The notes under the pieces: model-generated
The model's database searches: none
The model's input: only the letters and a program-made list of their open reading frames with translations
Told to the model about the DNA's origin: nothing
Part shown: piece by piece, positions 6,650 through 64,000 of the stretch
How positions within the stretch are numbered: the stretch's first letter is position 1
How the letters are laid out: the number at the start of each line of letters is the position of its first letter
From: Candidatus Peregrinibacteria bacterium CG10_big_fil_rev_8_21_14_0_10_36_19
Lineage (GTDB): Bacteria; Patescibacteriota; Gracilibacteria; UBA1369; LOWO2-01-FULL-3
Length of the DNA: 64,000 nt
Reading direction: 5' to 3'
NCBI GenBank assembly: GCA_002772535.1
Contig: PFDP01000003.1
Location: 3,962 to 67,961, forward strand
Program-made: the position numbers and the translations under genes

Positions 6650-6650
6650 A

Positions 6651-24247: not shown

Positions 24248-24249
24248 AA

Positions 24250-27659: not shown

Positions 27660-27788
27660 GATTTTCCTTGTTAAAAACCGCAAGGAGTTTACTCAAGAAA
27701 CTCACGGTGGTCAAGGTTATCATTCAAATTTTGACGATACTTAAAAATAGGTTTACCATTATTCTCCTTACTTATTAATACAAAAATT

Positions 27789-32924: not shown

Positions 32925-33163
32925 TAGATCAAACAGCAAAATCAGAACCGCGTGTAGTAAACACAGATTATGGACAAAGAAAATTTGTACAATCGGCGGT
33001 TATACAAGAGCAAAAACCCCGTCCAGCTTCTGGAGGGTGGAAATATGTTCGTAGAACGGTTGCAGGTATGTCGGCAACACTTTTGCCAATCATGCTTGCA
33101 CATAATTCTGATGCTGCGGAATATCATACTTTCGTTGAAAAAATTATAAAACTAGCCTTATAA
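32921..33163 (+). CDS. Small hypothetical protein
   Basis: 80-aa ORF. It has an ATGA overlap with the upstream gene, and its stop abuts the next ATG. It contains a weak hydrophobic segment (VAGMSATLLPIMLA). Confidence 0.45.
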   Translation: MIDQTAKSEPRVVNTDYGQRKFVQSAVIQEQKPRPASGGWKYVRRTVAGMSATLLPIMLAHNSDAAEYHTFVEKIIKLAL

Positions 33164-38748: not shown

Positions 38749-38761
38749 ATTTGCCTAGGTG

Positions 38762-38790
38762 TTGACACTTTGCGTTAAAAGTGCTTTAAT
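38762..38790 (+). promoter_or_regulatory. Putative internal promoter upstream of the 744-aa gene
   Basis: TTGACA (38762-38767), a 17-nt spacer ending in TGc, and TTTAAT (38785-38790). The spacer contains the small hairpin CACTTT-gcgtta-AAAGTG. Confidence 0.4.
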
Positions 38791-38811
38791 TAAGCATTAA
38801 AACTATGAAAT

Positions 38812-48144: not shown

Positions 48145-48408
48145 ATGCAAGAAAAATTTTTTACAACTGAGCAAGTAGCTACAATTCTCCAAGTTCATCC
48201 TTTTACCATCCTTAAGTTTATCAAAGCTGGGAAATTAAAAGGTCTGAAGCTTGGTAGGGTATATCGTATCAAAGAAAGTGATGTAAATCAGTTCATTGAA
48301 GATAGAATGACCCAACCTGCTAAAAAAATAGTCAAAAAGGAGATCACGGAACCTCATTCCAACGATAATCCACCACCTACTGAAGAAGATCATTACTTTA
48401 TTATTTAA
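48145..48408 (+). CDS. Excisionase/MerR-superfamily helix-turn-helix DNA-binding protein
   Basis: 87 aa. FTTEQVATILQVHPFTILKFIKAGKLKGLKLGRVYRIKESDVNQFIE is the excisionase-family HTH pattern. It has a polar C-terminal tail. Confidence 0.7.
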   Translation: MQEKFFTTEQVATILQVHPFTILKFIKAGKLKGLKLGRVYRIKESDVNQFIEDRMTQPAKKIVKKEITEPHSNDNPPPTEEDHYFII

Positions 48409-48591: not shown

Positions 48592-48669
48592 AAAATTTAC
48601 AATTAAAAATCTCCAATTGCCCTAAGTTCGTTTGCCCACGAACAAAACAAAGCCCTAGAAAAGCTAACA

Positions 48670-48700
48670 AAACCCTTCAATACGAAGGGTTTTGTCTTTT
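48670..48700. terminator. Bidirectional hairpin terminator between convergent units
   Basis: AAACCCTTC-aatac-GAAGGGTTT followed by a T-rich tract. It sits between the plus-strand small genes and the stop of the minus-strand operon (48699). Confidence 0.65.
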
Positions 48701-49817
48701 ATTTTGAAATAGGGCACTGCTTGCTATTTATTGTTGCAGCACAACCTTTCAGATCTGAAAGAGGTTTTAAATTATCACTAAGTGCCTTATTTACCCTTTC
48801 TAGCTCCTCAGTAAAGCTAATATTTGCTCCATCTGATCCTACCTTATACAAAACCTCAAATGTGCTTTTTAAATTTGCTCTCATTACATTTAGGTCATAG
48901 TTACTCTCTGAGGAACTCAAAGCATTTAATAGATCGCTTTGAGTTACCACCTGTGAGCTAGGAGTATATTTTGTTTTTAAATCACTAAGTATTTGGGCAA
49001 CACCACTTTTAGAGCCTAAATTGTTCACATTTACACTTACCAAGCCTTTAAAATAAGATTCTAATCCTATATCTGTTATGGCTTCTACTAATTTTTCTTT
49101 CCTTCCACCAATTGCTTTTTCCGCATTTTTGAGTGCTGGTTTAGCACCTGCAGCATTATCCAAAAATTGTTTCCATCTCTTTTCTACAGTTGCCCAAGAT
49201 GAATTTTCACATTTTATATAGGTTTTTTTTCTATCAGAATATTTGTTTTCCAACTTGTTAAAAAAATTATCTAATTCACTAGATTTAATATAACCAGGAT
49301 CAAAATAGCGAGATTGTATCTCAGACTTAATTGTTTTTGATGGAGTGTATAAACTATCTTCATCTTCCAGTGACCTTGTGGTTAAAACTTCTGCTGGTAA
49401 GTTCACAACCACTTTTCCATCAACAACATTCCTTACATAATATATTTCAGCGCTTAGCTTGTATAAGGCGCTTTTTAGCTGTGGCAGTTTTTCTGTATTA
49501 CATGTTAAAAAAGCGTCTCTTATGTAATTTTTTACTTTATCTCTCTGGTTTATAAGGTTACTTACATCGTTACCCTGACACTGATTCCTAAAAAGGAAAT
49601 CATTAAATGGTTCTATGGTGCTATTAATAACACCGTCTGCAAATGTCATCGACTGTAGGAATGCAATAAATTCTAAATTCCCCTTTGCAGCGCATTGCGC
49701 CACCACTAATTTGTCGCCACTAAACGGTACTAATTCCTTATCAGCTGCATGCGCAACATTTGTACTAAGTACTAGAATTGTAACCAAAATAAAGTTGTAT
49801 ATTAATTTCTTCATCAT
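48699..49817 (-). CDS. Secreted hypothetical protein (372 aa), Cys-containing helical protein
   Basis: Signal peptide MMKKLIYNFILVTILVLSTNVAHA, a helical/charged body, and the C-terminal LKGCAATINSKQCPISK. 4-nt overlap with the upstream gene. Confidence 0.65.
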   Translation of the reverse strand: MMKKLIYNFILVTILVLSTNVAHAADKELVPFSGDKLVVAQCAAKGNLEFIAFLQSMTFADGVINSTIEPFNDFLFRNQCQGNDVSNLINQRDKVKNYIRDAFLTCNTEKLPQLKSALYKLSAEIYYVRNVVDGKVVVNLPAEVLTTRSLEDEDSLYTPSKTIKSEIQSRYFDPGYIKSSELDNFFNKLENKYSDRKKTYIKCENSSWATVEKRWKQFLDNAAGAKPALKNAEKAIGGRKEKLVEAITDIGLESYFKGLVSVNVNNLGSKSGVAQILSDLKTKYTPSSQVVTQSDLLNALSSSESNYDLNVMRANLKSTFEVLYKVGSDGANISFTEELERVNKALSDNLKPLSDLKGCAATINSKQCPISK

Positions 49818-51574
49818 TGAATATTAGGTTTTTTACCGATTTCCTTACATACTTTAGCAGTATCATTGAAAAGCTTATTATAGCTCTCAAAAAATGTTGC
49901 CAGTCCTTCTAGCTCTTTCAACACCACTTGTGCATAAAGTTTTGTATTCATAGCATCGCTACTGGCTTGAATCGCCTCAATATCTTTTAAAGCAGCAGCA
50001 CTTTCAGCATTAATACTAGATTCCAACTGATTCAAAATATCTAACTGAGTTGTATCCTTAGTTGATGATGAAGTCGCAGATTTAATGTATGTTTCACCCT
50101 TTGGTAATAATAAAGGCTGATATCTAGTTACAAACTTGTTCCATTCATCAAAAATATTTCTTCCAAAAATTAAGTCATCATTTGGAGGAGTTGGGACAGG
50201 CGCTTTAATAGTTACAAATTTCATATCTAAAAGTGGTTCATATGCTTGCTTGCATTTAGTGCTTTCAAGCAAATTACCAGTTACTTTATTCGGCACCAAA
50301 CTATGTGAAAGCGTTTTATCAAGTACTAGGTTTATTTTTTCAATTTCACATAAAATACAAGTATCCGAAGGTAGATAGCTTGATACAGTTTGTTTAATAT
50401 ATTCAACTTCTAAACACACAGAAAAGTGTTTTTTTAATATAGGTTCTTTATTTATTGCCTTTGCTGACTGTTCCAAAATAGCCGTTGATGTACCACCTAA
50501 GCTTTTAAAATTACCACTACCGGTAAAACCAATATTTGGATCAGCAACATTTCCCTCAAGAATTGGACACCAATTTTGTAACCAGTTTCCAGGATTTGCA
50601 GGCTCAAGATTTTGCGCTGTTAATTTATTGTTAGCATTTTTAGTATCACTATTTGCATTAGCAGCTGGATCCACTTGAGAGTTACCAGAACTGCTACTAA
50701 TTTCATTTGCTATAGTCTTATCTACATACACATCTATTGCTTTGCTCAATGGCACTTTTAGAGGAGATGGACACACATCATTTATTAACACATTCACATC
50801 CACACTAGATTCGCCAACCTTAATTTTTACATTACCAGCTTTAATTGAACCATTTATTACATCTTTTTTAGCAACTTTACTTTCTGCAATACTATTCGTA
50901 CTTGAAGCAAAATTATTTATAGTTGCAGCAGGATTTTCATTTGCAATGTAATCGTTAATTGTTTGTTCACGCTCAGTAGGTAAATAGGGTGTTGGTAATT
51001 GTACTTGGTAAGGCTGACCCAAAGTATTTTTCACAACTTTCACAAATAGAATTTCTTCCATAACTTCTATGTCATGAACTAAGTCAAAACCACTATCACT
51101 CAAATCACCATTGCTAAACATTTCACTTGGCCTAGTAGCAAGATCCAATTCTTGCTGTAATTCATACAAATCTTTTAGTCTTTCATAATCTTCAACCACA
51201 TTTTCCATTATTTGAAATGCTTTTTCTTGAGTCATATTGCCACCATTGAAGTTGGGGTTACTAAAAATAGGCGTTTTCGTACCATTCTTAACTTGATTAA
51301 CTTCTGCAACAGTAAGTCCATAAGACTTTGCAACTTCCTTGATTGCATCTCTTTCAGGTTTTTCAAGCGCTTTTTCATGAACCAGAGCATAAATATTTTT
51401 TCCATTTGATCCACTATTAAAGACATCATTCCAATCAAATAAATCACCATTAGCAACTATTGTATCCCATAAACCAAGTTCTGCATGAGAAACTTCAACA
51501 GGTTTCACATAGATCAAAACAGTGAGTGCAATCACACAAATCATTAAACCAAAAATGTTATTTTTCATTGTCAT
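49814..51574 (-). CDS. Secreted hypothetical protein (586 aa)
   Basis: Signal/anchor MTMKNNIFGLMICVIALTVLIYV...SHA, several Cys pairs, and the C-terminal helical region ...LEGLATFFESYNKLFNDTAKVCKEIG. 4-nt overlaps on both sides. Confidence 0.65.
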   Translation of the reverse strand: MTMKNNIFGLMICVIALTVLIYVKPVEVSHAELGLWDTIVANGDLFDWNDVFNSGSNGKNIYALVHEKALEKPERDAIKEVAKSYGLTVAEVNQVKNGTKTPIFSNPNFNGGNMTQEKAFQIMENVVEDYERLKDLYELQQELDLATRPSEMFSNGDLSDSGFDLVHDIEVMEEILFVKVVKNTLGQPYQVQLPTPYLPTEREQTINDYIANENPAATINNFASSTNSIAESKVAKKDVINGSIKAGNVKIKVGESSVDVNVLINDVCPSPLKVPLSKAIDVYVDKTIANEISSSSGNSQVDPAANANSDTKNANNKLTAQNLEPANPGNWLQNWCPILEGNVADPNIGFTGSGNFKSLGGTSTAILEQSAKAINKEPILKKHFSVCLEVEYIKQTVSSYLPSDTCILCEIEKINLVLDKTLSHSLVPNKVTGNLLESTKCKQAYEPLLDMKFVTIKAPVPTPPNDDLIFGRNIFDEWNKFVTRYQPLLLPKGETYIKSATSSSTKDTTQLDILNQLESSINAESAAALKDIEAIQASSDAMNTKLYAQVVLKELEGLATFFESYNKLFNDTAKVCKEIGKKPNIQ

Positions 51575-52209
51575 TTGCAGGTTGGTGAAGTGGCATCAAT
51601 AAATTTTCCAGGGAAGCGGTCTACTTCTTCTCTTACATTCTTTATTGCTACTTTAAATTTATTCAAAGATTTAATAATTTTCTCATACTCCAAATGCATT
51701 GGATAAGCTGTTTTATATTCATCATAAACCTTTAATGCTTCCTCCATTACAACTTTTGCATCTTCAATTTCCTTTTCTATTTTGGCATCCCTTAAACTTA
51801 CATCACTAAATATTGATTCAAGTTTTGAACTATTATCAAGTTTTGGCAATTTTGATTTTACTTCTAACAATGTTTTTACATAGCTCATATATAAATCTAA
51901 AGCCCCCATTGATACACAATAACTGCTAACATTTGTTTCACTACATTCTCCGTCTGATTTAAAGTCAGGACTATTCACATAATTCTTTGTTTTAATTAAT
52001 TTCAAAAACAAATCTACTTTTTCATTAAAGTAATCATTCATTGTATTGTGATAATTACGCCTCACCGTTTCAAAAGAATCTCCATTATCTGCAAATCCAT
52101 CAATGTATTCATTAATGGTATCAGCATAAATTACATATCCACTATACCCAGTTACAACAACGATTGCTGCTATCATCAAACTCCAAATTGTATTTTTAAA
52201 ATTTTTCAT
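51571..52209 (-). CDS. Secreted/anchored hypothetical helical protein (about 212 aa)
   Basis: I prefer ATG 52209 (MKNFKNTIWSLMIAAIVVVTG...), which forms a TAATG overlap with the upstream stop. The track start is 52224. The C-terminus is ...VDRFPGKFIDATSPTCK. Confidence 0.6.
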   Translation of the reverse strand: MKNFKNTIWSLMIAAIVVVTGYSGYVIYADTINEYIDGFADNGDSFETVRRNYHNTMNDYFNEKVDLFLKLIKTKNYVNSPDFKSDGECSETNVSSYCVSMGALDLYMSYVKTLLEVKSKLPKLDNSSKLESIFSDVSLRDAKIEKEIEDAKVVMEEALKVYDEYKTAYPMHLEYEKIIKSLNKFKVAIKNVREEVDRFPGKFIDATSPTCK

Positions 52210-52793
52210 TAGTTTTGGACACATTGGTTTAAAAATCCGGGCAATTTATTATCAAAAGTTTTAAAATATCCGTACATTTGAGCCATTGCTAAGTTCATCT
52301 TTCTAAGACGATCAGAAAGAGCTTTATATTTTTCCACCATCACCGTGCTTTGTTTTTGTACGCTATTTGTTTTTATTGATCTTAGCATTTGGTCTTTAGC
52401 TAATTTCAAATAAGTATCTTTTATTTTTCCACATTTGATATAACTAGCATAAGTACTAGCTATACCCTCATTTTGTGGCTGTATTTTATCAAATGCTATT
52501 TCTAAATCTTTACGGTAAAGATCGTATTTTGCGACTGCGACATTAATTAAAGCACTATTGTCGCTTTTACTTTGAAAATGTGTTTCCAAAAATTTAAAGA
52601 ATTCTATTGTTTTAATATCATATATTTGTCCAAGCCTTTCCATACATTGAGCAACATCAGCATTTTTTAAACTTGCTTCAAGTGCCGTTGCATGATTACT
52701 CAGCTCAGATGGAAATTGATACGCAAAAGCGCTTACCATAGTGGTAGAAATAAAAATCAAAGATAAACAAATTGTGATAATTTTATTTAACAT
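52209..52793 (-). CDS. Secreted hypothetical helical protein (194 aa)
   Basis: Signal peptide MLNKIITICLSLIFISTTMVSAFA. The C-terminus is ...FKTFDNKLPGFLNQCVQN. The start overlaps the giant gene end by 11 nt. Confidence 0.6.
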   Translation of the reverse strand: MLNKIITICLSLIFISTTMVSAFAYQFPSELSNHATALEASLKNADVAQCMERLGQIYDIKTIEFFKFLETHFQSKSDNSALINVAVAKYDLYRKDLEIAFDKIQPQNEGIASTYASYIKCGKIKDTYLKLAKDQMLRSIKTNSVQKQSTVMVEKYKALSDRLRKMNLAMAQMYGYFKTFDNKLPGFLNQCVQN

Positions 52794-55700
52794 TTCCGAT
52801 TAAAATATCATTACTTTTAGAAAATATACTAGATTCATCAGGAGTTGATATAACGCTAAAGAAAATATCTCCAGCAGTTACTTCAGCTTTATTTGATAAT
52901 GTAGATACACAAGGACAAGTATTACATTCGCCAGGTACAACATAGATACCTTTATCACCAACCACATCAGAAACGTTTCCGTTTAAATCTATTGTATCAT
53001 CAGAAACCTTTTCATCAGTAGTATTTTCATTATTATTTTCAGAACAATCATAGAAATCTAAAACTCTTAATGCCATCATCATCATATCTCCACGAGTTAT
53101 TAATGCATCTGGGTTTAAAGCTTCTTCTGGTGTGAGTATAAAGTTATTTTTTACCCCGCTATTTGCTTTTAAATATTTTGTTAGGTCTTGAGATATTTTA
53201 ATATATGGTTTGTACCAAGGTGCCTCTAATTGAATTTCTCCCAAATCTAAAACTCCTTGCATCTCTAAAGCCTCTAAAATTATTTTAGCCGCTTCAGCTC
53301 TTGTTATTGTATTGGAAGGTTTATATGGAGTTAATCCTTTTTCATCTACCTCACCTTTATATCCGTTAACAAGACCTCTCAAAGCGGCTTCTTTAATATA
53401 AGAGTAGTACCAAAGGTTTTTATCGTTTATGTCATTAAACAAGCTAGGATTTTCATAGGCATCTTTTCTAGGTACGATACAAAGCATATCCAAAAGAACT
53501 TTTACAAATTGAGCTCTATCAACAGTATCATTTACTTGTAGAGCTATACCATTTGCGGTAGGAACACCCTCGATAATTCCTTTTTCAGATAGTATTTTCG
53601 CAGCATTTTGAAGTTCACTATTTACATTTTTAATATCAATAAAAGGTGATGAATAACTAATGTTTTTTTCTTCTACTATTTTGCTTGGTAAACTTACAGG
53701 CACATCATTAGGGCCAACAATCTCGGCTCTTTTGTTCACAACAATATTTACTTCCGCTAAAATTTCTTTTCCTTGAATTACCTCAACAACAAAAGGGGCT
53801 ATATTGTGGTTGTTAGATTTCTTCCTGAAATTAATAGTTGAGTCTAATTTGATTAAATTTCCCGATCCATCAACTATAACTAGATTTTTCTTCCCATCTG
53901 CAAGTAATGCGCCACCTGGATAAAGCTTGTTATCTGATCCAAATTTTTGCCACTTCAACTTACCAATACTTTTTACACTCACAGAATTTTTATTTTCTAC
54001 TAAGCTTACCCCTGCATTAATATCCGCCATTAAATAAATCTTCACTAGCTCTAAACCTGAACTATCAACAATTGAGCTATAGCTTGCTGCTTTAAGTGGT
54101 TGTGCAGGTCGAATATTCGATGTGTAGCCATCTTTTGTTATTTTAAAATTCCCAGTTAAAGGATTTATTTCTGCAATCACAGTTCCTAAACTATTTTCCA
54201 CCAAAATCATATCATTAGTATCCAAATCACTAATTCTGTATTCACCAATGTTATTAGTTTTATCAGTTCTAACTTTTTCAATTCGTGGCACTAAACTTAG
54301 TTTTCCATTTTGAACTCTATAAATGTATCTATTTCGAATTAATTTCAAAGGAATGTCTGCAATTTTTTCATTTATGCTTCCACTGGCAATACCGCTTCTA
54401 CTAAAACTTTCATCTAGTGTTATTTTAGGTACAAATATTTCTATGCTAATCTCTTGAGATGAACTATTTCCAGACTGATCTATAACATGCACTGTAGCTT
54501 TATTTTTACCTATATATTCCTGCTTATCAAAAGGACCAATCTTAAACTTAGGGTTTGTTTTGTCATTCCAACTAATACCATCACCATTTTCATCATAAGC
54601 AAGATTTAAATCACTCCAGTACTGTTTTCCGCCAAAATCCAAGTAGTATTCCTTAACTTCACCAGTCGGATCAATTGCTTTACTGGCATCAATTTCTAAA
54701 TTCCCAAAAAGAGGAACTTTATACTCTGTAGTTGATAAAGTTGGCAATGGAGCATCTTTGTCACCACAGATTTGAGGTGCCACCATCACCGTACTTGAAA
54801 CTAAAGATTTCTCTCCATCTTTAGAAATCTCAAAAACATTTGCATAATAGTTTCCATTTTCTAAATCTAAATCGACACTATCTTCAGTTGATGCTATCAC
54901 TTTAAACGCCTTATCAAAATCTTCCAGAAGTGAATTTCTTAAAACCACTTCATATTTTTTATCTTTCTCACTCAACCAACTAATTTGTGCTTTTTTATAA
55001 TTATCATATGGAACCGACACACCTTGCACGGCAATTCCTCCAGCAGCTACAAAATCACTTACAGTATTTTTCTTAACTTCAATTAGTAAGTCACCTTTTT
55101 TAGCTTTTTTGTTTTCCTTATAATTTTCTTTTAAGTAAACATTACCACCCATTGAATATACGATGTCCGTATCGCCATCTTTATCTACATCACTAAATAC
55201 GCTATTAACTTTCTCAGAAAGTTCATCAACATAATTTAAAATACTCTCGTTCTCATTTCCTACTACGACGAAGAATCCTCTTGGGGTTTCTACATCATTT
55301 GATGCAGCATCAGCAAAATCTTTACTATCAAAATTAGCTGCAATAAGTTTGCTTTCGGAACTTGCCTTAATAGTATTTTCTATACCCTCACCTAAGAAGC
55401 TCAATTTTCTTTCAGTTATTTCACCGGTAACAGGGGATGAGTTACTAGCAAATTTTCTTGGACTTTCATCTGTTTCTACCAGTAATTTTCCAAACTCCAA
55501 TGGATCGCTAATATTTTTCAACACACCATTAGTAGTATTTAAGTTATCAACATAGGCAATCAATGAATCTCTAAGTTTACTGTTAGCATTTTTTTCTGTT
55601 TCGTTTCTTAAGGCGATATCTTTTTTTATGCTACTTAGAGGTCTATTTAAAATTGGATCATTTTTATCTAGGAATGATTGAGTTGCACTTAAGTAATATT

Positions 55701-58700
55701 TATCAGGCACAACTTCCTTATCCATATTATCTATATAGCTTTGAAGATCATTTTTCTCTTTTTTAATTCCATCAAAAGCACTATCCAAAATTTGTTGGAA
55801 AGGGAAGTCTGTGTACTCTTCTAATCCATCTACAAAGTTATCAACTTTTTTATTTACTGTGTCTGCACCATTTTTTACAGCATTGTAAATAAAATCAGTT
55901 TCTACACTCATGTTTGTTTTCGCATTTATTCTTATCTGTTTTAGATAGTCATATTGTATTGCTGGCATTTGTACTCCAAGATCTTTCATGAAAGGTAGTG
56001 TGGCTTGCACAGTTGGTTGTGTAAGAGTTTCAATCTCTGTACCAAGAGAACTTTCTGGTACCGGCACAAGTCCTTTCTTAAGCAAACATAGTGCTTGCAT
56101 TGCAGGCTTAAGATTTTTGGCTACCTTGGCAGTTGTACTACCAATATTTGGAATTTTTGGTGGTCTTGGTAAATCTGGCAGATCCGGTAGTGGTAGAGCG
56201 GGTAGATCAGGGAAGTTTGGTAAGCTAATCTCTGGGAATTCCATGATCCATTTTGGAATTTCTGGGAGCCCATCTAATTTTGCATTTAAAATTTCTAAAT
56301 CACCGGCATTTATATCAACACTTTCAGGTAAATTAGGTGAAATATTTATGGTAGGTAAATCAAATAATGCAACGGGCTCTGGTCTAAATACTAAATCCGG
56401 CCACACAACTCTTACTCCAGTTTTTATTTGTGAAATATCAAACACAATGTCTGGCCATTTTGGTAATGGTATTACAGGAAGGTCAGTAGGTAGTGATGCA
56501 AAAACGCTAAGAAGTAATCCAAGTTTACTAAATCTATCATTTTTACATTCATCACATGATGCTTGATAATCTGCAGAAATATCCAATAAAACTTTCCAAT
56601 TTTTAAAGGTCCTTACAGCATCTTCCGCAGCTTTCATCCAGGACTGTACGGTTTTTTGTTGTTTGTTTATATAACCACCAGTGTATTGAGTGGCCGCATC
56701 CATATAGCAAATTAGCTGTGTGGCATATTTAGCTTCCATCTGGCGCCATTTCAAGATTTCACCAGGAAGTCTACCAATCGCATCAAGTTTTCCAGAAGTT
56801 ATTTTTACATTTGCCACCAAATTGCCAAGTTTTACTTTTATCAAATCACACATGCTTTCTCGGTATTGGCTTTCCTTACATTTCAAAATTTCATCTAGTC
56901 TCTTAATTTGGTCTTCTTGATATGTAATCCATAAATCAGCTTGTCTTTGCCATTTTTGAATTTCGCCTTGAGATATAGCAGGTATTTTTAGCAGTACTTC
57001 TTTTCCTTCAATTTGAATTAGGGGAGAACTGTTTAGAGATTTTAAGAAATCATTTATACTCTTAATTTCCTGATTACTATTTTTATCTTTTGTACTTTTG
57101 GATACTAAAGTATTTAAATCCGGATATATGAAATAGAAATCAGGTAGATCTAAAAGTTTATTATAAATTTCCTCAGTTTGAGCATCTAGCCAATTTGTTA
57201 TTACACTTGGAAATCCAGGTATTCTTACATTAACTTTTGCATTGGCAGAAACAGCAGAGTTGGCTGATGTAAATGCACTATCGCCTTTTATTGCCTTAGA
57301 ATCAGCAGATGTATTGCCATCAGAAACGATAGTGGAAAGTCCCACATCCAAATTAGAAGTAACATTTTTAGCCTTAGTTAAAGCAGTGCCAATTGAGTTT
57401 AAAAATTTAGGACATCCTCCAACCAGTTTTGGAGGAATAGCAAAAGCATAACAAATACCAGCGGTACTGTTTGGGCCAGTACAAATTGCTGTACCAAGTC
57501 CAAGAGTAAGTGTAGGGCTGATATATAATCTTGATGTAGATGGCGCTAGTGATGAGTAAAATGGGGCAAAATATGGTGGATTTGGAGTACCAAAAGCCAA
57601 GGTTGCAATACCATTAGGGTTATCAACATCTGGAGCAAATAGAGCGTCGTTAAATGGAATTGGCAAACATCCTCCACCGGAACATCTAAAGGTTGATGTT
57701 AAGTTCTGAATCCCGCTTGAAATAGATTCCGCAACATTGCTGAGGGAATTATCTGTTTTATCTATGCTATCAACACATCCATCAAAATCACTATCTTCAT
57801 TGCCGGAATTTTGCCACTTGGATATTGCAGATTGAGGGTCTTTAGTTGGATCAGGCACCCCCTGCTTTTTTGCTTCTGCAGAATAAAGATCACTTAAGCT
57901 TTTACCATCGCTTGTAACTTCCTCCATCTTAAATATTACTTGTCCTTTTTTATTTAAACCGGTTGAGTAGAGATAGGTAAGTATGCCGTCAGGGTTAATA
58001 CCAGGGCGCACTCTTATATCGTAGTAATCATCTTTATCTGTGCTCTTAAAATTCTTAGCTAAATCAAAACTCACTTGAGGGATTTCTGTGACCTTCATCT
58101 TATATTTAATCGTTCTTTTACCGTTAGCCGGCACACTAGCACCTTTAATTATTACAGATCTCAAGCTGTAATCAGTTTGTGAAAACTGAAGTTTATCACT
58201 ACAACCAGCATCTAAACATTGCAAACTACCAGGCACTATTTGCATAGTTGTTGGAGTTAAATCAGAGATCATTAAATTATCCAATTTGCTCTTAGAGTTA
58301 ATGGTAATTATATAATCTATTTCATCACCAAGAGAAACACTACCACCATTGACATCTAAAGCAGTTTTATTGAGTCCGCTATAAAATGGAACTTCAGAAG
58401 CATAAATAAATCTTACAGGGTCATCTACAGCATTCAGTGCAATATCTAAGTAGTTTTTAGGTTTGTTATCTTGTCCCGCATAACTCAAATACAAATTATC
58501 CCTTAAGTTAATTTTTGTATTTAAGAGATATCCAAAATTCCAGTTATTGTTATCTCCAAAACTTGTATTTAAACCACTACATTTTTTACCATCTTCTTTG
58601 TTATAAAAAACCCTCAAATTTCCTGCCGAATCGCTCACCACCAAATCTTGGCATCCATTGTTATTCATATCTGCCGCCTTCATTTCAAAAACCTTTCCTT

Positions 58701-61700
58701 CTATTAAAAGATTTAAACTCTTTCTTTCAAAATGACCCTTATTATTTTCGAATAATGAAACACAAGCTTCCTTAACTTTACAGCTTTCCTTAGTTCCAAT
58801 AACTAAATCATCATATCCATCATTATTTGTATCTATACTTGTAGCGCTCAAAATACCATTTGTAACTTTGAGAACATATCCCATATCCTTGAATTTTTTT
58901 GGCCCAACAACATTCATCAAAAGACGCACATAACCATCTTCATAAAGAAGCAGAACATCATCACGACCATCACCGTTATAGTCGGTAGTGAGCATTTCAC
59001 GAATTTCGTTTTCACCTATAAACAGGGGTTTACCAATATCTTTTGAAAAACCGGAAAGTTTACTCACTAGCCCCACAATACCTTCAACCTTCAAATGAAC
59101 ATTAGGATCACCATAAATAATTGATGCATCAGATGCATATGCCATTACAGACTCTCCTACAGTATTACCAGCGGCAAAATTTAGCATATGTTTATCTTGT
59201 CCTTTAAAGCCAGCCCCCATGTTTTCATCTATTCCAAATGGCTCCATTTCAGTTTGTAGCTCACTTTCTTTATCTATCATTAAAATTCCAAAAGGAGCTT
59301 GATCAGAAATTCCGCTATAACTTTTTTGAGTAACAAAATTCTTTTTGTTCGTTAAAATTTTCACATATACGCCAGGTGCGTATTTGGACTGACTAACATT
59401 CGAGGAAAGCACTTTTACACTTAAAGGCTTGCCATTTTGGTCAACAAATTTCTTCTCACCATTATTTAAAACTACGAATGTTTCAGCCAGCTTTTCTCCA
59501 CTAAAGTTATCTATAAAAATACTTCTATCGTCTTCGGTTTCAACGCTAATGTTATCTCCCAATGTTTCAAACTCTCCATCCGCATCAACCCTAAATAATT
59601 GTTTATGAGACTTATATGCTGTAAAAGCACTCACTGTATTTACAGTGCCGCTATACAAAATACTTTTTGCCATATTTACATTATCAGCACCAAAATTACC
59701 TCCAAGTATAGAGGTATATAGCGCTCTAATATTATAAGATTTCAAATCACTTGCCTGAACAGCCTTAGCAACTTTTAAGCTCAAAACGCCATCTTCCAAA
59801 CCATTTGCTGATGCTATTAAATTAACAATTCCAGACTTATCACCAGCCTTAGCAATTACTGAAGCCACACCATTCAAACTAACCGCCGATTTTGCACCTG
59901 TAAATGAAACTAAGCTCTCAGTTGCATTTGTAGCTGAAAAATTTATCAATACATCATCTCTATCAACTAGGTTTCCATATTGGTCTTCTGTGCTTGCATT
60001 TAAAATTACATTTTTATCTGGACTGATTACTTCATCGGAAGCACTTAGTTTAATCCTCTCAGGCTTCGAAGCAACAATTTTTAGTTTAGTTATTTTTGAG
60101 ACAAACCCAGGAACATTTACTAATACTTCAGCCTCACCTGATGTTGTTGCAACTTGTAGTGACGCAATATTATTTTTACTACCAATAATTTCTGCAAGGT
60201 TTGGGGTTAAAATTTTAAATTCAAAATTCTCTTTGTATTCTTGGTTAATTTTTCCATCAAGAAGCATAGTTGCTGTTAACTTTGGTTTAAAGTTACTGCC
60301 AGCTTCAATTTGCTGTTGATCAAAACTCAAAATTAAATCTGCTTCCTTTGCAATTTTTATTTTTTTGGAAGCTCCCACATATTTTCCAAAGTCTATTTTA
60401 TCTAATTTGTTTTTATTTATTAGGAACTCTTCTTTAAGATCGTAATCCATCAACACAGCTATAATATTTGCTTCACCACTTTCCTTTTTTGAATATAGAT
60501 CAACATTTGCTCTTCCCTCTAGAACATCAATTTGTGTTCCAATAATTTCACCATCCACATCAAAAGTTTCTGGTATTGTTACTTTTTCATTCGCGAATAT
60601 GCCAATTTGGTAATATGAACCTTCTGCTAAATTTCCATATTTATCTTTCAAGTTTATCGTAAGAGTAGTTTTAGATTCACCGTTTGCTAAAAGACCTCCA
60701 GTATTATTTTCAATCTCAATTGCGACAGGTGCACCGGCCAAGAGGTTTATATATTTTTCAGCTAGCGTATAGCCATCTACTTCAGCTCTTAATTTAAAAC
60801 TTCCAGATTTCTTTCCTGCCTTAATTTTCTTTTTAGCAACTCCTTCAATGCTACTGGCCTCATTACCTCCAACTAGTGAAACAAGTCCAGGAGTACTCAT
60901 ATCAACAATGCTAAACTTCACAGTTTTTCCACTTCTATCCAAAGAGCCATTATTTAAAATGTTTGCTTCCACTTCTAAAATAGATTCACCATTTGCAACA
61001 AACTTGCTCACTTCACTCGCAAAATTAATCTCTACTTTTTGTTTTGAATTAGAAGAAGATATTACATTGTTGTAGTTTATTTTTTCTGGAGTTTCATATT
61101 CCTTTCCAGTGATTTCAGCAGCTGCACTACACGCCTCTGCTAAATTTGGCTTTGAAGTAAAATAAGAAATAAAAGCCTGAGTTTCTTTAAAAAAGTCTTT
61201 CAAATTTACAAATTCATACTCCTGAGAATTGGGAGCATAAGCATCTGAATCTTCTACAGAAGGTTGAGAATTTAATTTACTTTCATTTTTTATTGCTTGA
61301 TCAAATGGATCAAAACTTATATCAGTTTCTTCTTTTATGTCTTTGTTAAAATTTAAATTAAATCCATCTTTATCGCCATCAAGATATAAATAGGCAGCTT
61401 CATATCCATATTTAACATTTTCTCCAGCCTGTGCAGGCAACACACTTGCATCACCTACAAAAGCATTTTTGTTAGGGTTTAAGTAGTGACTAAAAACGTA
61501 TTCATGTTTATCGTCTATACTTAAATTTTTCCATTCTAAAGAGTCAGCAATTTTTAATGTTGAAGCTCTATCTAAGTTGAAACCACTTGGTGGGGAATCA
61601 ATGTCATTTATTACTACAGGTTTTAGATAGTCATTTAGTATTTTGTCATGAATTTTTGTACAAGTTACCAGGCTAAAACCGGGAGCTTTTGCATTACTAC

Positions 61701-64000
61701 AGTCCACAGGATCTTTTCCAATTAATTTATAACTCCCATATGCAGCTGCAATTTTCCAAGCAGTCTGATCCAGGTTCGCAATTAACTGTTTATCATTAGA
61801 AACATCAAAAAGATTTGGATAGTTAATTTTAAATAGCTTACCAGGCACTTGATATTTATCTGTATTTATATTTTTCAAAATTGCTTCTACATCTACTTTA
61901 TCTGAAACAGGATTTGCTTCTGGATAATCTGGCATTGGTTTTGATTCCACCTGAAACGCAACATAACGCACACCGTCTACAGGTAAAGCACTAGTGTTAA
62001 TAGATTTAATTTGTTCTGTAATTGTATGCTCTGTTGGCTCATCATGTTTAATAACGCTCGAAAGATTTTTATATATATCTGGCTCAACAATTAAAACTGC
62101 ATCTTTATCAAATTTACTATTTGGCAAAGATGCCGGAAGTATATAAGTTCCAGCTTTAGATAGCATTTTTCTATTTATCTCTTCAGGGTTTGTTAGGGTA
62201 TTTGAATTTGCTTCATCAAAGTCATACCACCTTGTTTCAAAAACCCCATCTTTTCCAAGCTTTCCATCTGCATCATAAAGATCTCGCCATTCAAAATCTG
62301 TAATTCCATCGTTATCATTATCTATTCCATCAAAAAGCCCATAATTATCAGAAAAGTCTTTAAGAGTTAAAAGTTTTTCACCAGATCTACTAATGACAAT
62401 GTTTGCTGGATCGGATTTAGCATTTGAAAGAAGAAACTCATCTTGCATATCAGACTCTGGATATTTACCACTTCCCGAAATAAAAGCAGTAATTCTATCC
62501 AAAAATCTTCCATAAAAATCAACATCTATTGATTGTTTTTGTTCTAAATTATTTCCATCTAAAGTTCCATCTAAAACAGAGAGTGAATAATTACTATCTT
62601 TGCTTAAATCTGAAACCCCCATCAAACCTTCAAAGCAGGAATTTAAATAATATTCATCTACATCACCATTTATTTTTGAAACTACCGAACCAGCCGGATC
62701 CAATACGGGCATTCTTGCAACTTCCTCAAAACATCTCGCAGGATATTTTTCACTAGAATTTTGATTACAACCAGCAGATTGGTCATAGCCCTTATATCCA
62801 TATCCACCAAGCCTACTATTATAAAGCTCAAAAACAACACCGTTTGAGCTGCCAATCATTTTACTATTTTCACCTCCTGTATAGTAATCCTTCAAAAGGT
62901 ATCCACCAGAGGCAACCATAAAACTCAATGTGGTATTTTTTTTCGATGTCCCTCTATAATATTCAAAACTCAAATTGGAAGTTTTAAATTGTATTTTATT
63001 AGAAACCAAAGAACTGTCTGATCTCACATCGCTAACCTCAGAATTGATAATGTTTTCTACAGAGTTAGATGAGTTTACCTGTTTGCCATTAATACTAACA
63101 ATCACATCACCCTTTTTCATAAAATCTACTAAAGGATTTTTATATTTATCGTATAGGTAGTAAGGGTTATCAATAAAAGCAGAGATTCCATACTTAGGAT
63201 TATCTTCTATTACAGCACCAAAACTACTTTGACTCTTTGTTAGCTTCAAAGCTTCCTCAGGAGACAAAATCCTAGTATTTACACCAATACTATATTTTGG
63301 AAAAGCAGTACTATTATCAGAAACTCTTGAAGACTTAGTGAGTTTAGTTGTACCCAAATAAAGCCCACATTGTTTCACATTTTCCAGAGTATCTGCCTGA
63401 ATTCCCTTTACATAAAACCTATTATTTTCTTCATCCAGATAATTAAATCTCATAACTAAATCAACCACACTTCCTTGGTACTCCACTTTAAAGCTCTCCT
63501 TTTGGCCGCTTTTATCAGCAAAATACCCTCCGAGCTTAGCACTCCTCAAAAGCGGCACAGGCTCAGAAATAATTTCCGCAATTTGATTGATCTGATTCTC
63601 CAAAGCAGAATTAACATTTTTTAAATACTGCTTAGTAAACTCATCTTTCATACTAATCAGCGAAACAGGAGTATCAACTTCACTTAAATCATATCTCCCA
63701 GTGTTATAAGTTAAATCGTTTACTTGTGAGAGGTAATAGCTAAATAATTGAAAATAAGGAATTAGGTATTGGTCTATAATCTGTTTTGTTTGAATGTCAG
63801 GCAAAGTTCCAAAATCACCTTTCTTCAAGTTTTCCAAATATTTAACAGCCTCAGGATTCTCTTTATTTATTGGTAAATTATCCAAAATTTTTCCACTTAC
63901 TTTTTGAGCCCACTCTTTTCCATAACGCATATACGCTAGATCCTCCATGTACTTAATAGAATCTACATAATACTTATAAGCATCTTCATTTAGGTTCGAT
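52783..64000 (-). CDS. Giant multidomain cell-surface protein (at least 3721 aa; frame still open at the right window edge)
   Basis: Single uninterrupted ORF. The first in-window ATG is at 63948, but the 17 codons upstream to nt 64000 contain no stop, so the N-terminus probably lies outside the window. It contains PDZ-like, Ca-binding DxDxDG, Ig-like, FG-GAP, DUF11-like and SLH-like segments (see the domain features). Confidence 0.85.
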   Translation of the reverse strand, partial: SNLNEDAYKYYVDSIKYMEDLAYMRYGKEWAQKVSGKILDNLPINKENPEAVKYLENLKKGDFGTLPDIQTKQIIDQYLIPYFQLFSYYLSQVNDLTYNTGRYDLSEVDTPVSLISMKDEFTKQYLKNVNSALENQINQIAEIISEPVPLLRSAKLGGYFADKSGQKESFKVEYQGSVVDLVMRFNYLDEENNRFYVKGIQADTLENVKQCGLYLGTTKLTKSSRVSDNSTAFPKYSIGVNTRILSPEEALKLTKSQSSFGAVIEDNPKYGISAFIDNPYYLYDKYKNPLVDFMKKGDVIVSINGKQVNSSNSVENIINSEVSDVRSDSSLVSNKIQFKTSNLSFEYYRGTSKKNTTLSFMVASGGYLLKDYYTGGENSKMIGSSNGVVFELYNSRLGGYGYKGYDQSAGCNQNSSEKYPARCFEEVARMPVLDPAGSVVSKINGDVDEYYLNSCFEGLMGVSDLSKDSNYSLSVLDGTLDGNNLEQKQSIDVDFYGRFLDRITAFISGSGKYPESDMQDEFLLSNAKSDPANIVISRSGEKLLTLKDFSDNYGLFDGIDNDNDGITDFEWRDLYDADGKLGKDGVFETRWYDFDEANSNTLTNPEEINRKMLSKAGTYILPASLPNSKFDKDAVLIVEPDIYKNLSSVIKHDEPTEHTITEQIKSINTSALPVDGVRYVAFQVESKPMPDYPEANPVSDKVDVEAILKNINTDKYQVPGKLFKINYPNLFDVSNDKQLIANLDQTAWKIAAAYGSYKLIGKDPVDCSNAKAPGFSLVTCTKIHDKILNDYLKPVVINDIDSPPSGFNLDRASTLKIADSLEWKNLSIDDKHEYVFSHYLNPNKNAFVGDASVLPAQAGENVKYGYEAAYLYLDGDKDGFNLNFNKDIKEETDISFDPFDQAIKNESKLNSQPSVEDSDAYAPNSQEYEFVNLKDFFKETQAFISYFTSKPNLAEACSAAAEITGKEYETPEKINYNNVISSSNSKQKVEINFASEVSKFVANGESILEVEANILNNGSLDRSGKTVKFSIVDMSTPGLVSLVGGNEASSIEGVAKKKIKAGKKSGSFKLRAEVDGYTLAEKYINLLAGAPVAIEIENNTGGLLANGESKTTLTINLKDKYGNLAEGSYYQIGIFANEKVTIPETFDVDGEIIGTQIDVLEGRANVDLYSKKESGEANIIAVLMDYDLKEEFLINKNKLDKIDFGKYVGASKKIKIAKEADLILSFDQQQIEAGSNFKPKLTATMLLDGKINQEYKENFEFKILTPNLAEIIGSKNNIASLQVATTSGEAEVLVNVPGFVSKITKLKIVASKPERIKLSASDEVISPDKNVILNASTEDQYGNLVDRDDVLINFSATNATESLVSFTGAKSAVSLNGVASVIAKAGDKSGIVNLIASANGLEDGVLSLKVAKAVQASDLKSYNIRALYTSILGGNFGADNVNMAKSILYSGTVNTVSAFTAYKSHKQLFRVDADGEFETLGDNISVETEDDRSIFIDNFSGEKLAETFVVLNNGEKKFVDQNGKPLSVKVLSSNVSQSKYAPGVYVKILTNKKNFVTQKSYSGISDQAPFGILMIDKESELQTEMEPFGIDENMGAGFKGQDKHMLNFAAGNTVGESVMAYASDASIIYGDPNVHLKVEGIVGLVSKLSGFSKDIGKPLFIGENEIREMLTTDYNGDGRDDVLLLYEDGYVRLLMNVVGPKKFKDMGYVLKVTNGILSATSIDTNNDGYDDLVIGTKESCKVKEACVSLFENNKGHFERKSLNLLIEGKVFEMKAADMNNNGCQDLVVSDSAGNLRVFYNKEDGKKCSGLNTSFGDNNNWNFGYLLNTKINLRDNLYLSYAGQDNKPKNYLDIALNAVDDPVRFIYASEVPFYSGLNKTALDVNGGSVSLGDEIDYIITINSKSKLDNLMISDLTPTTMQIVPGSLQCLDAGCSDKLQFSQTDYSLRSVIIKGASVPANGKRTIKYKMKVTEIPQVSFDLAKNFKSTDKDDYYDIRVRPGINPDGILTYLYSTGLNKKGQVIFKMEEVTSDGKSLSDLYSAEAKKQGVPDPTKDPQSAISKWQNSGNEDSDFDGCVDSIDKTDNSLSNVAESISSGIQNLTSTFRCSGGGCLPIPFNDALFAPDVDNPNGIATLAFGTPNPPYFAPFYSSLAPSTSRLYISPTLTLGLGTAICTGPNSTAGICYAFAIPPKLVGGCPKFLNSIGTALTKAKNVTSNLDVGLSTIVSDGNTSADSKAIKGDSAFTSANSAVSANAKVNVRIPGFPSVITNWLDAQTEEIYNKLLDLPDFYFIYPDLNTLVSKSTKDKNSNQEIKSINDFLKSLNSSPLIQIEGKEVLLKIPAISQGEIQKWQRQADLWITYQEDQIKRLDEILKCKESQYRESMCDLIKVKLGNLVANVKITSGKLDAIGRLPGEILKWRQMEAKYATQLICYMDAATQYTGGYINKQQKTVQSWMKAAEDAVRTFKNWKVLLDISADYQASCDECKNDRFSKLGLLLSVFASLPTDLPVIPLPKWPDIVFDISQIKTGVRVVWPDLVFRPEPVALFDLPTINISPNLPESVDINAGDLEILNAKLDGLPEIPKWIMEFPEISLPNFPDLPALPLPDLPDLPRPPKIPNIGSTTAKVAKNLKPAMQALCLLKKGLVPVPESSLGTEIETLTQPTVQATLPFMKDLGVQMPAIQYDYLKQIRINAKTNMSVETDFIYNAVKNGADTVNKKVDNFVDGLEEYTDFPFQQILDSAFDGIKKEKNDLQSYIDNMDKEVVPDKYYLSATQSFLDKNDPILNRPLSSIKKDIALRNETEKNANSKLRDSLIAYVDNLNTTNGVLKNISDPLEFGKLLVETDESPRKFASNSSPVTGEITERKLSFLGEGIENTIKASSESKLIAANFDSKDFADAASNDVETPRGFFVVVGNENESILNYVDELSEKVNSVFSDVDKDGDTDIVYSMGGNVYLKENYKENKKAKKGDLLIEVKKNTVSDFVAAGGIAVQGVSVPYDNYKKAQISWLSEKDKKYEVVLRNSLLEDFDKAFKVIASTEDSVDLDLENGNYYANVFEISKDGEKSLVSSTVMVAPQICGDKDAPLPTLSTTEYKVPLFGNLEIDASKAIDPTGEVKEYYLDFGGKQYWSDLNLAYDENGDGISWNDKTNPKFKIGPFDKQEYIGKNKATVHVIDQSGNSSSQEISIEIFVPKITLDESFSRSGIASGSINEKIADIPLKLIRNRYIYRVQNGKLSLVPRIEKVRTDKTNNIGEYRISDLDTNDMILVENSLGTVIAEINPLTGNFKITKDGYTSNIRPAQPLKAASYSSIVDSSGLELVKIYLMADINAGVSLVENKNSVSVKSIGKLKWQKFGSDNKLYPGGALLADGKKNLVIVDGSGNLIKLDSTINFRKKSNNHNIAPFVVEVIQGKEILAEVNIVVNKRAEIVGPNDVPVSLPSKIVEEKNISYSSPFIDIKNVNSELQNAAKILSEKGIIEGVPTANGIALQVNDTVDRAQFVKVLLDMLCIVPRKDAYENPSLFNDINDKNLWYYSYIKEAALRGLVNGYKGEVDEKGLTPYKPSNTITRAEAAKIILEALEMQGVLDLGEIQLEAPWYKPYIKISQDLTKYLKANSGVKNNFILTPEEALNPDALITRGDMMMMALRVLDFYDCSENNNENTTDEKVSDDTIDLNGNVSDVVGDKGIYVVPGECNTCPCVSTLSNKAEVTAGDIFFSVISTPDESSIFSKSNDILIGNVK
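53060..53655 (-). other. Three SLH-like (S-layer homology) repeats near the C-terminus of the giant ORF
   Basis: FIDIKNVNSELQNAAKILSEKGIIEGV...VDRAQFVKVLLDML; FNDINDKNLWYYSYIKEAALRGLVNGYKG...ITRAEAAKIILEAL; APWYKPYIKISQDL...ITRGDMMMMALRVL. Confidence 0.55.
58590..59000 (-). other. FG-GAP/VCBS-type repeats within the giant ORF
   Basis: TDYNGDGRDDVLLLYEDGYVRLL, IDTNNDGYDDLVIGT and ADMNNNGCQDLVVSDSAGNLRVFYN are spaced about 50-60 aa apart. A further DVDKDGDTDIVYSMGGNVYL lies at about 55140-55200. Confidence 0.65.
59765..61035 (-). other. Array of bacterial Ig-like (invasin/Big-type) domains within the giant ORF
   Basis: Repeated modules of about 90-100 aa, such as FVANGESILEVEANILNNGSLDRSGKTVKFSIV, LLANGESKTTLTINLKDKYGNLAEG, and VISPDKNVILNASTEDQYGNLVDRDDVLINFSAT...GIVNLIASANG. 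Confidence 0.6.

Follow-up and report, generated by a model that had tools for sequence, protein, structure and literature searches.

We analyzed a 64,000-nt stretch (hereafter the window; positions 3,962 to 67,961 of contig PFDP01000003.1, assembly GCA_002772535.1) of Candidatus Peregrinibacteria bacterium CG10_big_fil_rev_8_21_14_0_10_36_19, a bacterium belonging to the Candidate Phyla Radiation (CPR; also called Patescibacteria). The window ends inside a giant gene on the minus strand, which is followed by four genes for exported proteins, here called d1 to d4. By sequence comparison, the giant gene product belongs, as the ortholog of this genome, to a family of giant envelope proteins that occurs throughout Peregrinibacteria, Peribacteria and Gracilibacteria. 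The gene is real and encodes a secreted, presumably wall-anchored protein of about 4,000 residues. In relatives it recurrently sits in a type IV filament locus, and the protein is probably part of a cell-contact apparatus. The locus contains the following features:

52783..64000, minus strand: giant open reading frame (ORF) that runs past the window edge, with 3,738 or more codons inside the window
52209..52793, minus strand: d1, 194 amino acid residues (aa), exported, helical, three conserved Cys; its start overlaps the stop of the giant gene by 11 nt
51571..52224, minus strand: d2, 217 aa, hydrophobic N-terminus (anchor or signal); of its three conserved Cys, one is the penultimate residue
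49814..51574, minus strand: d3, 586 aa, exported, C-terminus helical, with six or seven conserved Cys; start codon overlapping the stop of d2 (ATGA)
48699..49817, minus strand: d4, 372 aa, exported; five or six Cys are conserved, among them that of a C-terminal QC(P); the operon ends with this gene
48666..48696, unstranded: GC-rich hairpin of 12–14 bp that begins 3 nt past the d4 stop, with a T-run on the plus-strand reading

A giant ORF is followed by four overlapping genes in the window

Translation of the minus strand over 52783–63999 gave 3,738 codons with a sole stop at 52783–52785 and a frame that is open at the window edge, in agreement with the single 5'-incomplete ORF of 11.2 kb described in a first-pass annotation of this DNA; counted from the first ATG (63948), the ORF listing gives 3,721 aa. 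The motifs quoted in that annotation all lie where it had placed them: KKGDVIVSINGKQV (PDZ-like segment) at aa 295–308 (63076–63117), DGIDNDNDGITD (calcium-binding loop) at aa 557–568 (62296–62331), VSLGDEIDY...PGSL (DUF11-like segment) at aa 1888–1926 (58222–58338), and the C-terminal Cys cluster, CNTCPC, at aa 3692–3697. Since a mean of 250 ortholog residues aligns ahead of the first residue of the window protein, about 250–270 residues, signal peptide included, should lie beyond the window edge.

It is extremely improbable that the giant ORF is an assembly artefact, either chimeric or fused across frames. In some other assemblies (loci L001/L022, L027, L031 and L032) the giant gene appears as two ORFs, which would suit such an artefact, but the frame in the window runs uninterrupted over 11.2 kb and the protein is fully colinear with more than 25 independently assembled full-length orthologs. 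Moreover, the longest direct DNA repeat inside the gene is 38 nt and there are no notable tandem repeats; therefore, collapse of repeats in the assembly is not a concern. The split genes (for example 1915–6714 and 6683–9871 in L001) may reflect a frameshift, an assembly error or a real split.

Each of the d1–d4 starts overlaps the preceding stop by 4–16 nt, and the five genes span at least 15.3 kb in the window. The four same-strand ORFs with overlapping stop and start codons thus agree with the tight operon of more than 15 kb that had been proposed. The hairpin at 48666–48696 is likely a bidirectional terminator that ends the operon and is shared with a convergent HTH_17 gene. This small gene (48145–48408, plus strand) occupies the same spot in ~30 loci with 45–75% identity and is missing at the distant locus L052. 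It may act as a dedicated regulator or be no more than syntenic.

All four partners start with a signal peptide or a hydrophobic anchor and keep a Cys that is at most a few residues from the C-terminus. Profile comparison identifies d1 and d2 as paralogs (hhalign 91.7%, E 7.7e-7). None of d1–d4 has a Pfam or NCBIfam match, and profile searches of the PDB with d3 and d4 returned generic helical bundles only, the d3 matches being designed helical proteins. We considered and rejected two assignments. d1–d4 are not minor pilins, as they lack the G-F-T-L-x-E prepilin motif and carry ordinary signal peptides or anchors instead, and an identity of d1 and d2 with PilN and PilO has no Pfam or NCBIfam support; weak PilN and PilO matches belong to genes upstream of PilB in locus L004 (see below). 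The translational coupling, together with the odd number (three) of conserved Cys in both d1 and d2, suggests that the giant protein and d1–d4 may form a stoichiometric, possibly disulfide-linked extracellular complex.

The giant protein is colinear among its orthologs

Word-index searches with the central region of the giant protein returned only partial proteins named 'hypothetical' or 'SLH domain-containing' from metagenome-assembled genomes of Patescibacteria, Peregrinibacteria and Gracilibacteria. Scanning one genome for each GTDB species with two motifs of the core gave 47 loci, nearly all from Peregrinibacteria, Peribacteria or Gracilibacteria and one per genome in the 47 species genomes matched. 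These relatives are in line with a CPR-type bacterium, the first reading of the DNA having assumed an epibiotic bacterium with a reduced genome. A hidden Markov model search with a 595-position profile of the core (described below) matched 508 clusters (50% identity) at E<=1e-3 and 309 at E<=1e-30, nearly all of which are 3,500–6,000 aa long with the core in the middle. Full-length orthologs have 3,850–5,500 aa, and nearly all of them begin with a Sec-type hydrophobic signal ending in an AxA-like site (signal peptides were read by eye).

To compare gene and segment order, we searched by tblastn with 12 segments of the giant protein together with d1–d4, HTH_17 and UvrA, and found the same segment order, followed by d1–d4, in about 45–50 loci that were long enough. 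In the full-length alignment of 26 sequences, the length differences sit at four points, the largest of which is the Ig-like array with ~285 extra residues on average near aa 951–1000. The first-pass annotation had called the protein a mosaic. This description does not hold, because all 12 segments are colinear in nearly all of about 50 loci and the occupancy relative to the window protein is 0.63–1.0 throughout; on these alignments, the giant protein is a vertically conserved ortholog with a fixed domain order and a length that varies mainly in the Ig-like array. It contains 31 Cys (0.8%), of which 28 are conserved in at least 60% of the 26 orthologs and 15 of those in 26 of 26.

Three further observations concern individual orthologs. 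The ~250 residues after the signal peptide (e.g., L010 from 1373) are strongly conserved, with the pattern YDLV..VVD...GVVLVGDIPLPVVNKNGN...PEIWHG...FFDKNHLYY, and have no match in Pfam or the PDB. By eye this region has an unconfirmed Rossmann-like or gingipain-like look, and a gingipain/C25 fold, which we had suspected, was dropped as no Peptidase_C25 match was found in 25 orthologs. Locus L014 (JAUVQE010000014.1) is labelled Nitrospirota and encodes a full-length family member with a prepilin gene upstream; its synteny is the same as in the Peregrinibacteria loci, and the contig is probably mis-binned. In L055 (Gracilibacteria, JAQUEK010000004.1), the gene does not translate to the query under the standard code; it probably uses code 25, and the arrangement of the module may differ in that lineage.

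Domain architecture of the giant protein

Roughly 85% of the giant protein has no Pfam assignment. Pfam and NCBIfam scores were judged against the curated (gathering) cut-offs, and the protein was divided into the following regions, in order from the N-terminus:

61060..63999, minus strand: N-terminal region (aa 1–980), conserved, no fold assigned, with a weak PDZ-like segment at 63043–63120 and a DxDxDG-type loop at 62296–62331
59770..61059, minus strand: Ig-like array (aa 981–1410) of Invasin_D3-, Big_1- and Glyco_hydro2_C5-type beta-sandwiches (Pfam)
58600..59199, minus strand: FG-GAP/VCBS-type repeats (aa 1601–1800), among the most conserved parts (identity 0.48–0.53, occupancy 0.95–1.0)
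58087..58353, minus strand: DUF11-like or MG10-like beta-sandwich (aa 1883–1971), weak assignment
55900..57717, minus strand: family-defining core (aa 2095–2700) with invariant alignment columns
57412–57684, minus strand: hydrophobic Cys/Gly/Pro-rich beta module, RCSGGGCLPIP...LSPTLTLGLG.A.C.GP...C...C, with five invariant Cys
53620..55299, minus strand: beta-rich region (aa 2901–3460), conserved, with an FG-GAP-like loop DVDKDGDTDIVYSMGG and PKD-like and Ig-like segments read by eye
53050..53625, minus strand: three SLH-like repeats (aa 3459–3650), presumed cell-wall anchor
52786..53049, minus strand: C-terminal tail with a conserved CxxCPC motif at 52909–52926

Of the modules that had been read from the sequence, the Ig-like, FG-GAP and SLH modules each have a Pfam score above the cut-off. 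In the Ig-like array, Invasin_D3 scored 33.8 bits (cut-off 33) over aa 991–1081, and Big_1 and Glyco_hydro2_C5 scored below their cut-offs in the window protein and above them in the ortholog L009. A comparison with intimin and invasin showed the Ig fold alone in common, as the Ig-like domains are present and Pfam detected no N-terminal outer-membrane beta-barrel or LysM part. FG-GAP_3 (31.7 bits, cut-off 26.9) and FG-GAP (29.4 bits, cut-off 22.1) matched around aa 1673–1736, as they did in orthologs. Three clear calcium-loop repeats lie at aa 1673–1797 and another one at aa 2937–2960, past the core. PDB sequence and profile searches with aa 981–2000 gave nothing meaningful.

The SLH family (PF00395) scored 38.5 bits against a cut-off of 20.8 over aa 3521–3571, which is the middle repeat only, and PDB searches with the C-terminal region gave one weak SLH match and otherwise nothing meaningful. 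When the SLH-like repeats of 23 orthologs were compared by hhalign, repeat 1 matched repeat 2 (80%, E 1.6e-6) and repeat 2 matched repeat 3 (57%, E 1.5e-5), while repeats 1 and 3 did not match significantly. Thus, among the three SLH-like repeats that had been claimed, the middle one passes Pfam, and the outer two are linked to it by profile-profile comparison, repeat 3 less strongly. In the tail, Cys 3692, 3695 and 3697 are kept in 25–26 of 26 orthologs, and many orthologs have TSP3-type calcium-binding repeats inserted before the CxxCPC motif (TSP3_bac match in L009). The C-terminus of the giant protein, ...SKSNDILIGNVK, has no LPXTG motif and no hydrophobic tail, and Pfam detected no RTX match. 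This C-terminus, the RTX-negative Pfam search and the Sec signals in the orthologs speak against a sortase-anchored (LPXTG) giant adhesin or one secreted by a type I secretion system (RTX). For the CsaB pathway, which would supply a pyruvylated wall polymer as the SLH ligand, no PS_pyruv_trans match was found among the 37 window ORFs scanned.

Two of the earlier domain names were only partly borne out. The PDZ-like motif is correctly placed, but PDZ_2 scored 21.5 bits over 26 residues in the window protein (cut-off 27) and the assignment is weak; weak PDZ-family matches occur at the same place in 12 of 25 orthologs, with a best E of 3e-4. Similarly, the DUF11-like motif lies at its site, but the domain is sub-threshold in the window protein (TIGR01451, 14.7 bits against 24; bMG10, E=0.021) as well as in two orthologs (DUF11, 22.4–22.9 bits against 24.6), and this assignment is weak too. 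The N-terminal region as a whole (aa 1–980), with an identity to orthologs of 0.10–0.48 per 50-residue block, had no significant Pfam match, and the profile search of PDB sequences with it was also empty. The beta-rich region at aa 2901–3460 had no Pfam match above the cut-off.

The invariant core of the family

The core at aa 2095–2700 defines the family. The first-pass annotation had noted a unique Cys/Gly/Pro hydrophobic core and a Pro-rich segment, both of which were borne out; the core has invariant columns in the ortholog alignments. The beta module is followed by an IPGFPS...LDLPDFY segment, a beta hairpin and a long helical hairpin (56548–56970), and then by the SCDxCxNDR, PKWPD and WPDxxFxPE motifs. 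The proline tract LPDLPPLPLPxLPDLPRPPKIP lies in the region of about 56140–56559 and precedes an ILCLLKxG..PVPE...ETLTQ segment.

No match to the core was found in Pfam, NCBIfam or PDB sequences. The AlphaFold2 model of the core (aa 2095–2700, 38 sequences) had a mean predicted local distance difference test (pLDDT) score of 67.9, with 80–93 in the beta module and the helical hairpin, and a predicted template modeling (pTM) score of 0.46. A model of aa 2060–2900 with 12 sequences had a pLDDT of 46.8 and was discarded. Foldseek with the core model found nothing significant (best E 0.89 in the PDB and 0.12 in BFVD), which leaves the fold unassigned, and none of the PDB and BFVD matches to this imperfect model was like viral fusion proteins, secretins, PilY1 or Tc toxins. 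Since the core and the four partners match nothing described, there is no sign of a routine, already characterised adhesin family.

In relatives, the giant gene usually lies in a type IV filament locus

Because the window ends inside the giant gene, the upstream genes are known from relatives only. In L004, a 300-kb contig of Peregrinibacteria, the upstream genes on the same strand encode, in order, a 511-aa protein (weak PilN match), a 207-aa protein (weak PilO match), a PilB/GspE-type ATPase (T2SSE, 1e-127), a PilC/GspF platform protein (T2SSF) and two prepilins (N_methyl), and then the giant gene follows. The pilins score best against the GspG and ComGC models, and the ATPase against those of GspE and PilB. 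The prepilins of L004 (7937–9095) and L052 (8690–9823) also have weak matches to 'Verru_Chthon cassette protein C/D', a hint of resemblance to other cassettes of pilins plus a large protein.

By motif scan, 17 of the 22 loci with enough upstream sequence have a prepilin gene of the canonical KKG|FTLIELL type upstream of the giant start, and in 15 of those 17 the prepilin gene is on the same strand and ends 100–235 nt before the giant start. PilC or PilB (T2SSF or T2SSE) is present wherever the flank reaches far enough. In relatives, the giant gene occupies a middle position in a gene cluster of about 25 kb, and it is doubtful that it heads an operon, as had been stated, given the prepilin, PilC, PilB, PilO-like and PilMN-like genes upstream. 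Two of the loci without a prepilin gene have another gene upstream instead (L010, 213–1157, 314 aa; L017, 424–687, 87 aa, Bro-N-like by eye), suggestive of small insertions into the cluster.

A further locus is that of P0112 (L052), a distant member whose core matches the profile only from position 164 onward. It encodes proteins of 459 and 202 aa, T2SSE, T2SSF, two pilins, the giant protein, and proteins of 185, 214, 484 and 356 aa, which is the same 11-gene order. The flanks of this cluster are arranged otherwise than in the window, and UvrA and HTH_17 do not adjoin it. The conservation of the block amid different flanks argues that it has been retained as a unit for a reason.

Comparison with known systems

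Functionally, the nearest precedents are PilY1/PilC of Pseudomonas, Neisseria and Myxococcus and, in the saccharibacterium TM7x, PilX2, a beta-propeller protein that has no prepilin signal, whose gene lies in a pilin locus and which is required for host binding (PMC12206443). The giant protein shares with them a non-prepilin export signal, pilin genes as neighbors in relatives, calcium-loop repeats of the beta-propeller type and a proposed role in contact with a partner cell. In contrast to PilY1 and PilX2, it is four to five times larger, has a C-terminal SLH anchor and a unique core of ~600 aa, and is followed by four non-pilin exported partners rather than by minor pilins; its adjacency to pilus genes is seen in relatives only. 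Membership in the PilY1 family is unsupported, because no PilY1 domain was detected: the C-terminal beta-propeller of PilY1/PilC (Neisseria_PilC) had no Pfam or NCBIfam match at E<=1, and PilY1 was not among the Foldseek matches to the model, which covers the core and not the propeller region.

Like the SLH or S-layer proteins of monoderms (Sap/EA1 of Bacillus anthracis, clostridial cellulosome anchors), the giant protein has a Sec signal, SLH repeats and a presumed non-covalent attachment to a wall polymer. It differs from Sap/EA1-type proteins in that one of its three repeats passes Pfam, a CxxCPC tail follows the repeats, and the protein is several times larger and multi-modular. Operons of the type II secretion system (T2SS) may contain a gene for a large cargo protein, as in E. 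coli (yghJ/sslE with gsp-beta) and Klebsiella (pulA with pul). The likeness to these lies in a large Sec-exported protein encoded beside GspE-, GspF- and GspG-like genes; the giant protein differs in that there is no outer membrane or secretin, it would be wall-anchored and not released, and no enzymatic domain was detected.

Large surface proteins are known from other CPR bacteria, including giant membrane proteins of Vampirococcus (PMC8080830) and large extracellular, often Cys-rich proteins of Peribacteria (PMC4736985), and Peregrinibacteria are enriched in proteins of >5,000 aa for which no function was given (PMC11573180). The Vampirococcus and Peribacteria proteins resemble the giant protein in size, predicted extracellular site, Ig-like, DUF11 and integrin-type modules and the host-associated lifestyle of their CPR hosts. 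They are, however, variable, some being strain-variable or Cys-rich at ~7%, whereas the giant protein has 0.8% Cys, nearly all of them conserved, a fixed architecture and lineage-wide synteny. The CPR papers that we searched, some of which treat type IV pili in Gracilibacteria and Saccharibacteria, contain general mentions of giant or large surface proteins. In none of them did we find a description of the family, of its core and four partner proteins, or of its place in a pilus locus.

A possible pilus-associated adhesion complex

With somewhat less than even confidence, we favor an SLH-anchored, pilus-associated adhesion complex. In this mechanism, the giant protein would be exported by Sec, as the signal peptides of the orthologs indicate, and would be held on the cell wall by the three C-terminal SLH-like repeats. 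The N-terminal head, the Ig-like stalk of variable length and the FG-GAP module would project outward, and the invariant Cys/Pro-rich core of ~600 aa may serve as a platform for exported d1–d4, possibly via intermolecular disulfides. Because the five genes follow a type IV filament assembly set in relatives, the complex would most likely act alongside the pilus, as a PilY1- or PilX2-like non-pilin partner. Long-range contact would be made and shortened by the pilus, and close-range attachment to the host or prey cell would fall to the complex on the wall. The length variation of the Ig-like array, which resembles that of stalked adhesins, speaks for this mechanism. Accepting it would modify the earlier idea of a host- or prey-contact adhesin, of which the surface or adhesion role is plausible and the stand-alone form is less favored than one linked to the pilus.

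Several observations weigh against the adhesion complex. The pilus genes lie beside the giant gene in relatives, not in this window, and the 100–235 nt gap between the pilin and giant genes allows separate transcription. In 5 of the 22 loci there is no prepilin gene within the 1.0–1.6 kb upstream flank, and the distant members L054 and L055 have no pilus genes upstream; L054 keeps a d1-like gene downstream, and L055 has neither pilus genes nor d1–d4 nearby. Pfam and Foldseek of the core revealed no sequence or fold similarity to PilY1 or any pilus protein, and we are only moderately confident in the core model itself. An SLH wall anchor also fits poorly with a protein riding on the pilus tip. 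At last, the core and nearly all of the Cys appear to be under strong purifying conservation, which is untypical of host-range adhesins, as these usually diversify. This conservation leans towards a machine-like role and keeps alive a reading in which the protein serves as a conduit or inserts into a partner cell.

One such alternative, which we consider unlikely, is that the giant protein serves the type IV filament system not as an adhesin but as a part that spans the envelope or as a dedicated cargo. As a part, the SLH-anchored giant protein with d1–d4 would form a conduit or collar for the pilus in the wall and S-layer, replacing PilP/PilQ in cells that have no outer membrane and secretin; as a cargo, it would be exported by Sec and driven through the wall by a GspG-like pseudopilus, in the style of T2SS cargo. 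The block sits after the PilMN-like, PilO-like, PilB, PilC and pilin genes, where pilP and pilQ follow in diderms, and the best scores of the pilins (GspG/ComGC) and the ATPase (GspE/PilB), the SLH anchor that puts the protein in the wall, the machine-part-like invariance of the core and of nearly all Cys, and the d1/d2 paralogs of ~200 aa with N-terminal anchors are all consistent with either role, whereas the Sec signal beside gspE/F/G-like neighbors matches the logic of T2SS cargo in particular. On the other hand, Pfam, PDB sequences and Foldseek of the core gave no similarity to secretins, PilP or any conduit protein, no ring- or pore-forming fold was recognised, the Ig-like, FG-GAP and DUF11-type modules and the variable stalk are more typical of adhesins that project outward, and two distant members have no pilus genes nearby. 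Those two members fit a stand-alone host- or prey-contact adhesin that has its own five-gene operon, next to which the pilus genes would be inherited, uncoupled neighbors. We doubt this explanation as well. It is in keeping with the adhesin-type modules and the wall anchor, with the 100–235 nt ahead of the gene and with the adhesin role proposed for giant surface proteins in Vampirococcus and Peribacteria (PMC8080830, PMC4736985). Furthermore, UvrA, HTH_17 and PrsW are also syntenic in most loci and are clearly unrelated in function, so that synteny alone is weak evidence in this lineage. Yet L052 keeps the order of pilus genes, giant gene and d1–d4 amid different flanks, and the colinearity of the orthologs contradicts the mosaic that was part of the original idea.

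The giant protein and its four partners might instead be a structural scaffold of the envelope or S-layer, that is, a constitutive surface lattice or spacer with no specific role in host contact, which we regard as very unlikely. SLH repeats are the classical S-layer anchor, the family has one locus per genome in the 47 species genomes with housekeeping neighbors and strong conservation, and the Peribacteria genome paper reports S-layer genes and a heavy investment in the envelope (PMC4736985). A multi-domain protein of 430–600 kDa that has Ig-like and FG-GAP modules as well as four partners of its own would nevertheless be atypical of a scaffold, and the SLH name rests on a single domain. S-layer proteins are usually 40–200 kDa, encoded by a single gene and highly expressed. 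A bolder proposal, quite unlikely in our estimate, is that a monoderm type IV filament machine has an outer module that has not been described before, made up of the giant protein and d1–d4, SLH-anchored and disulfide-stabilised. Such a module could either let the pilus pass through the wall and S-layer, as a secretin-free equivalent of PilP/PilQ, or use the invariant hydrophobic beta module and the long helical hairpin to enter or breach the host envelope after the pilus has pulled the cells together. In both cases, the core would amount to a new protein fold family found in this CPR lineage only.

Neighboring genes

The genes around the operon are ordinary chromosomal genes, including those for UvrA, PrsW, a RecF-like protein, ThrRS, MutS, MutL, LexA, MurG, FtsW and purine synthesis. 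On the plus strand at 31446–41046, four large ORFs in a row (492, 798, 1062 and 744 aa) have no Pfam match at E<=1e-3 and form a second unassigned block of large proteins. Tandem DUF1246/DUF1297 (PurP-like) genes on the minus strand (23129–25281 and 26130–27683) adjoin PurH, which fits the nucleotide-synthesis capacity reported for Peribacteria.

Implications for cell contact in CPR bacteria

A central open question is how CPR bacteria recognise other cells and attach to them; to our knowledge, type IV pili are so far the sole experimentally supported factor in their cell attachment. The family described here is a concrete candidate that can be tested for two roles, as the non-pilin half of the contact apparatus or as the means by which the pilus passes through the wall and S-layer in monoderm cells. 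It also indicates that at least one 'giant gene' of CPR bacteria is a conserved core component and not a fast-evolving mosaic adhesin, which alters how such genes should be read in genome surveys.

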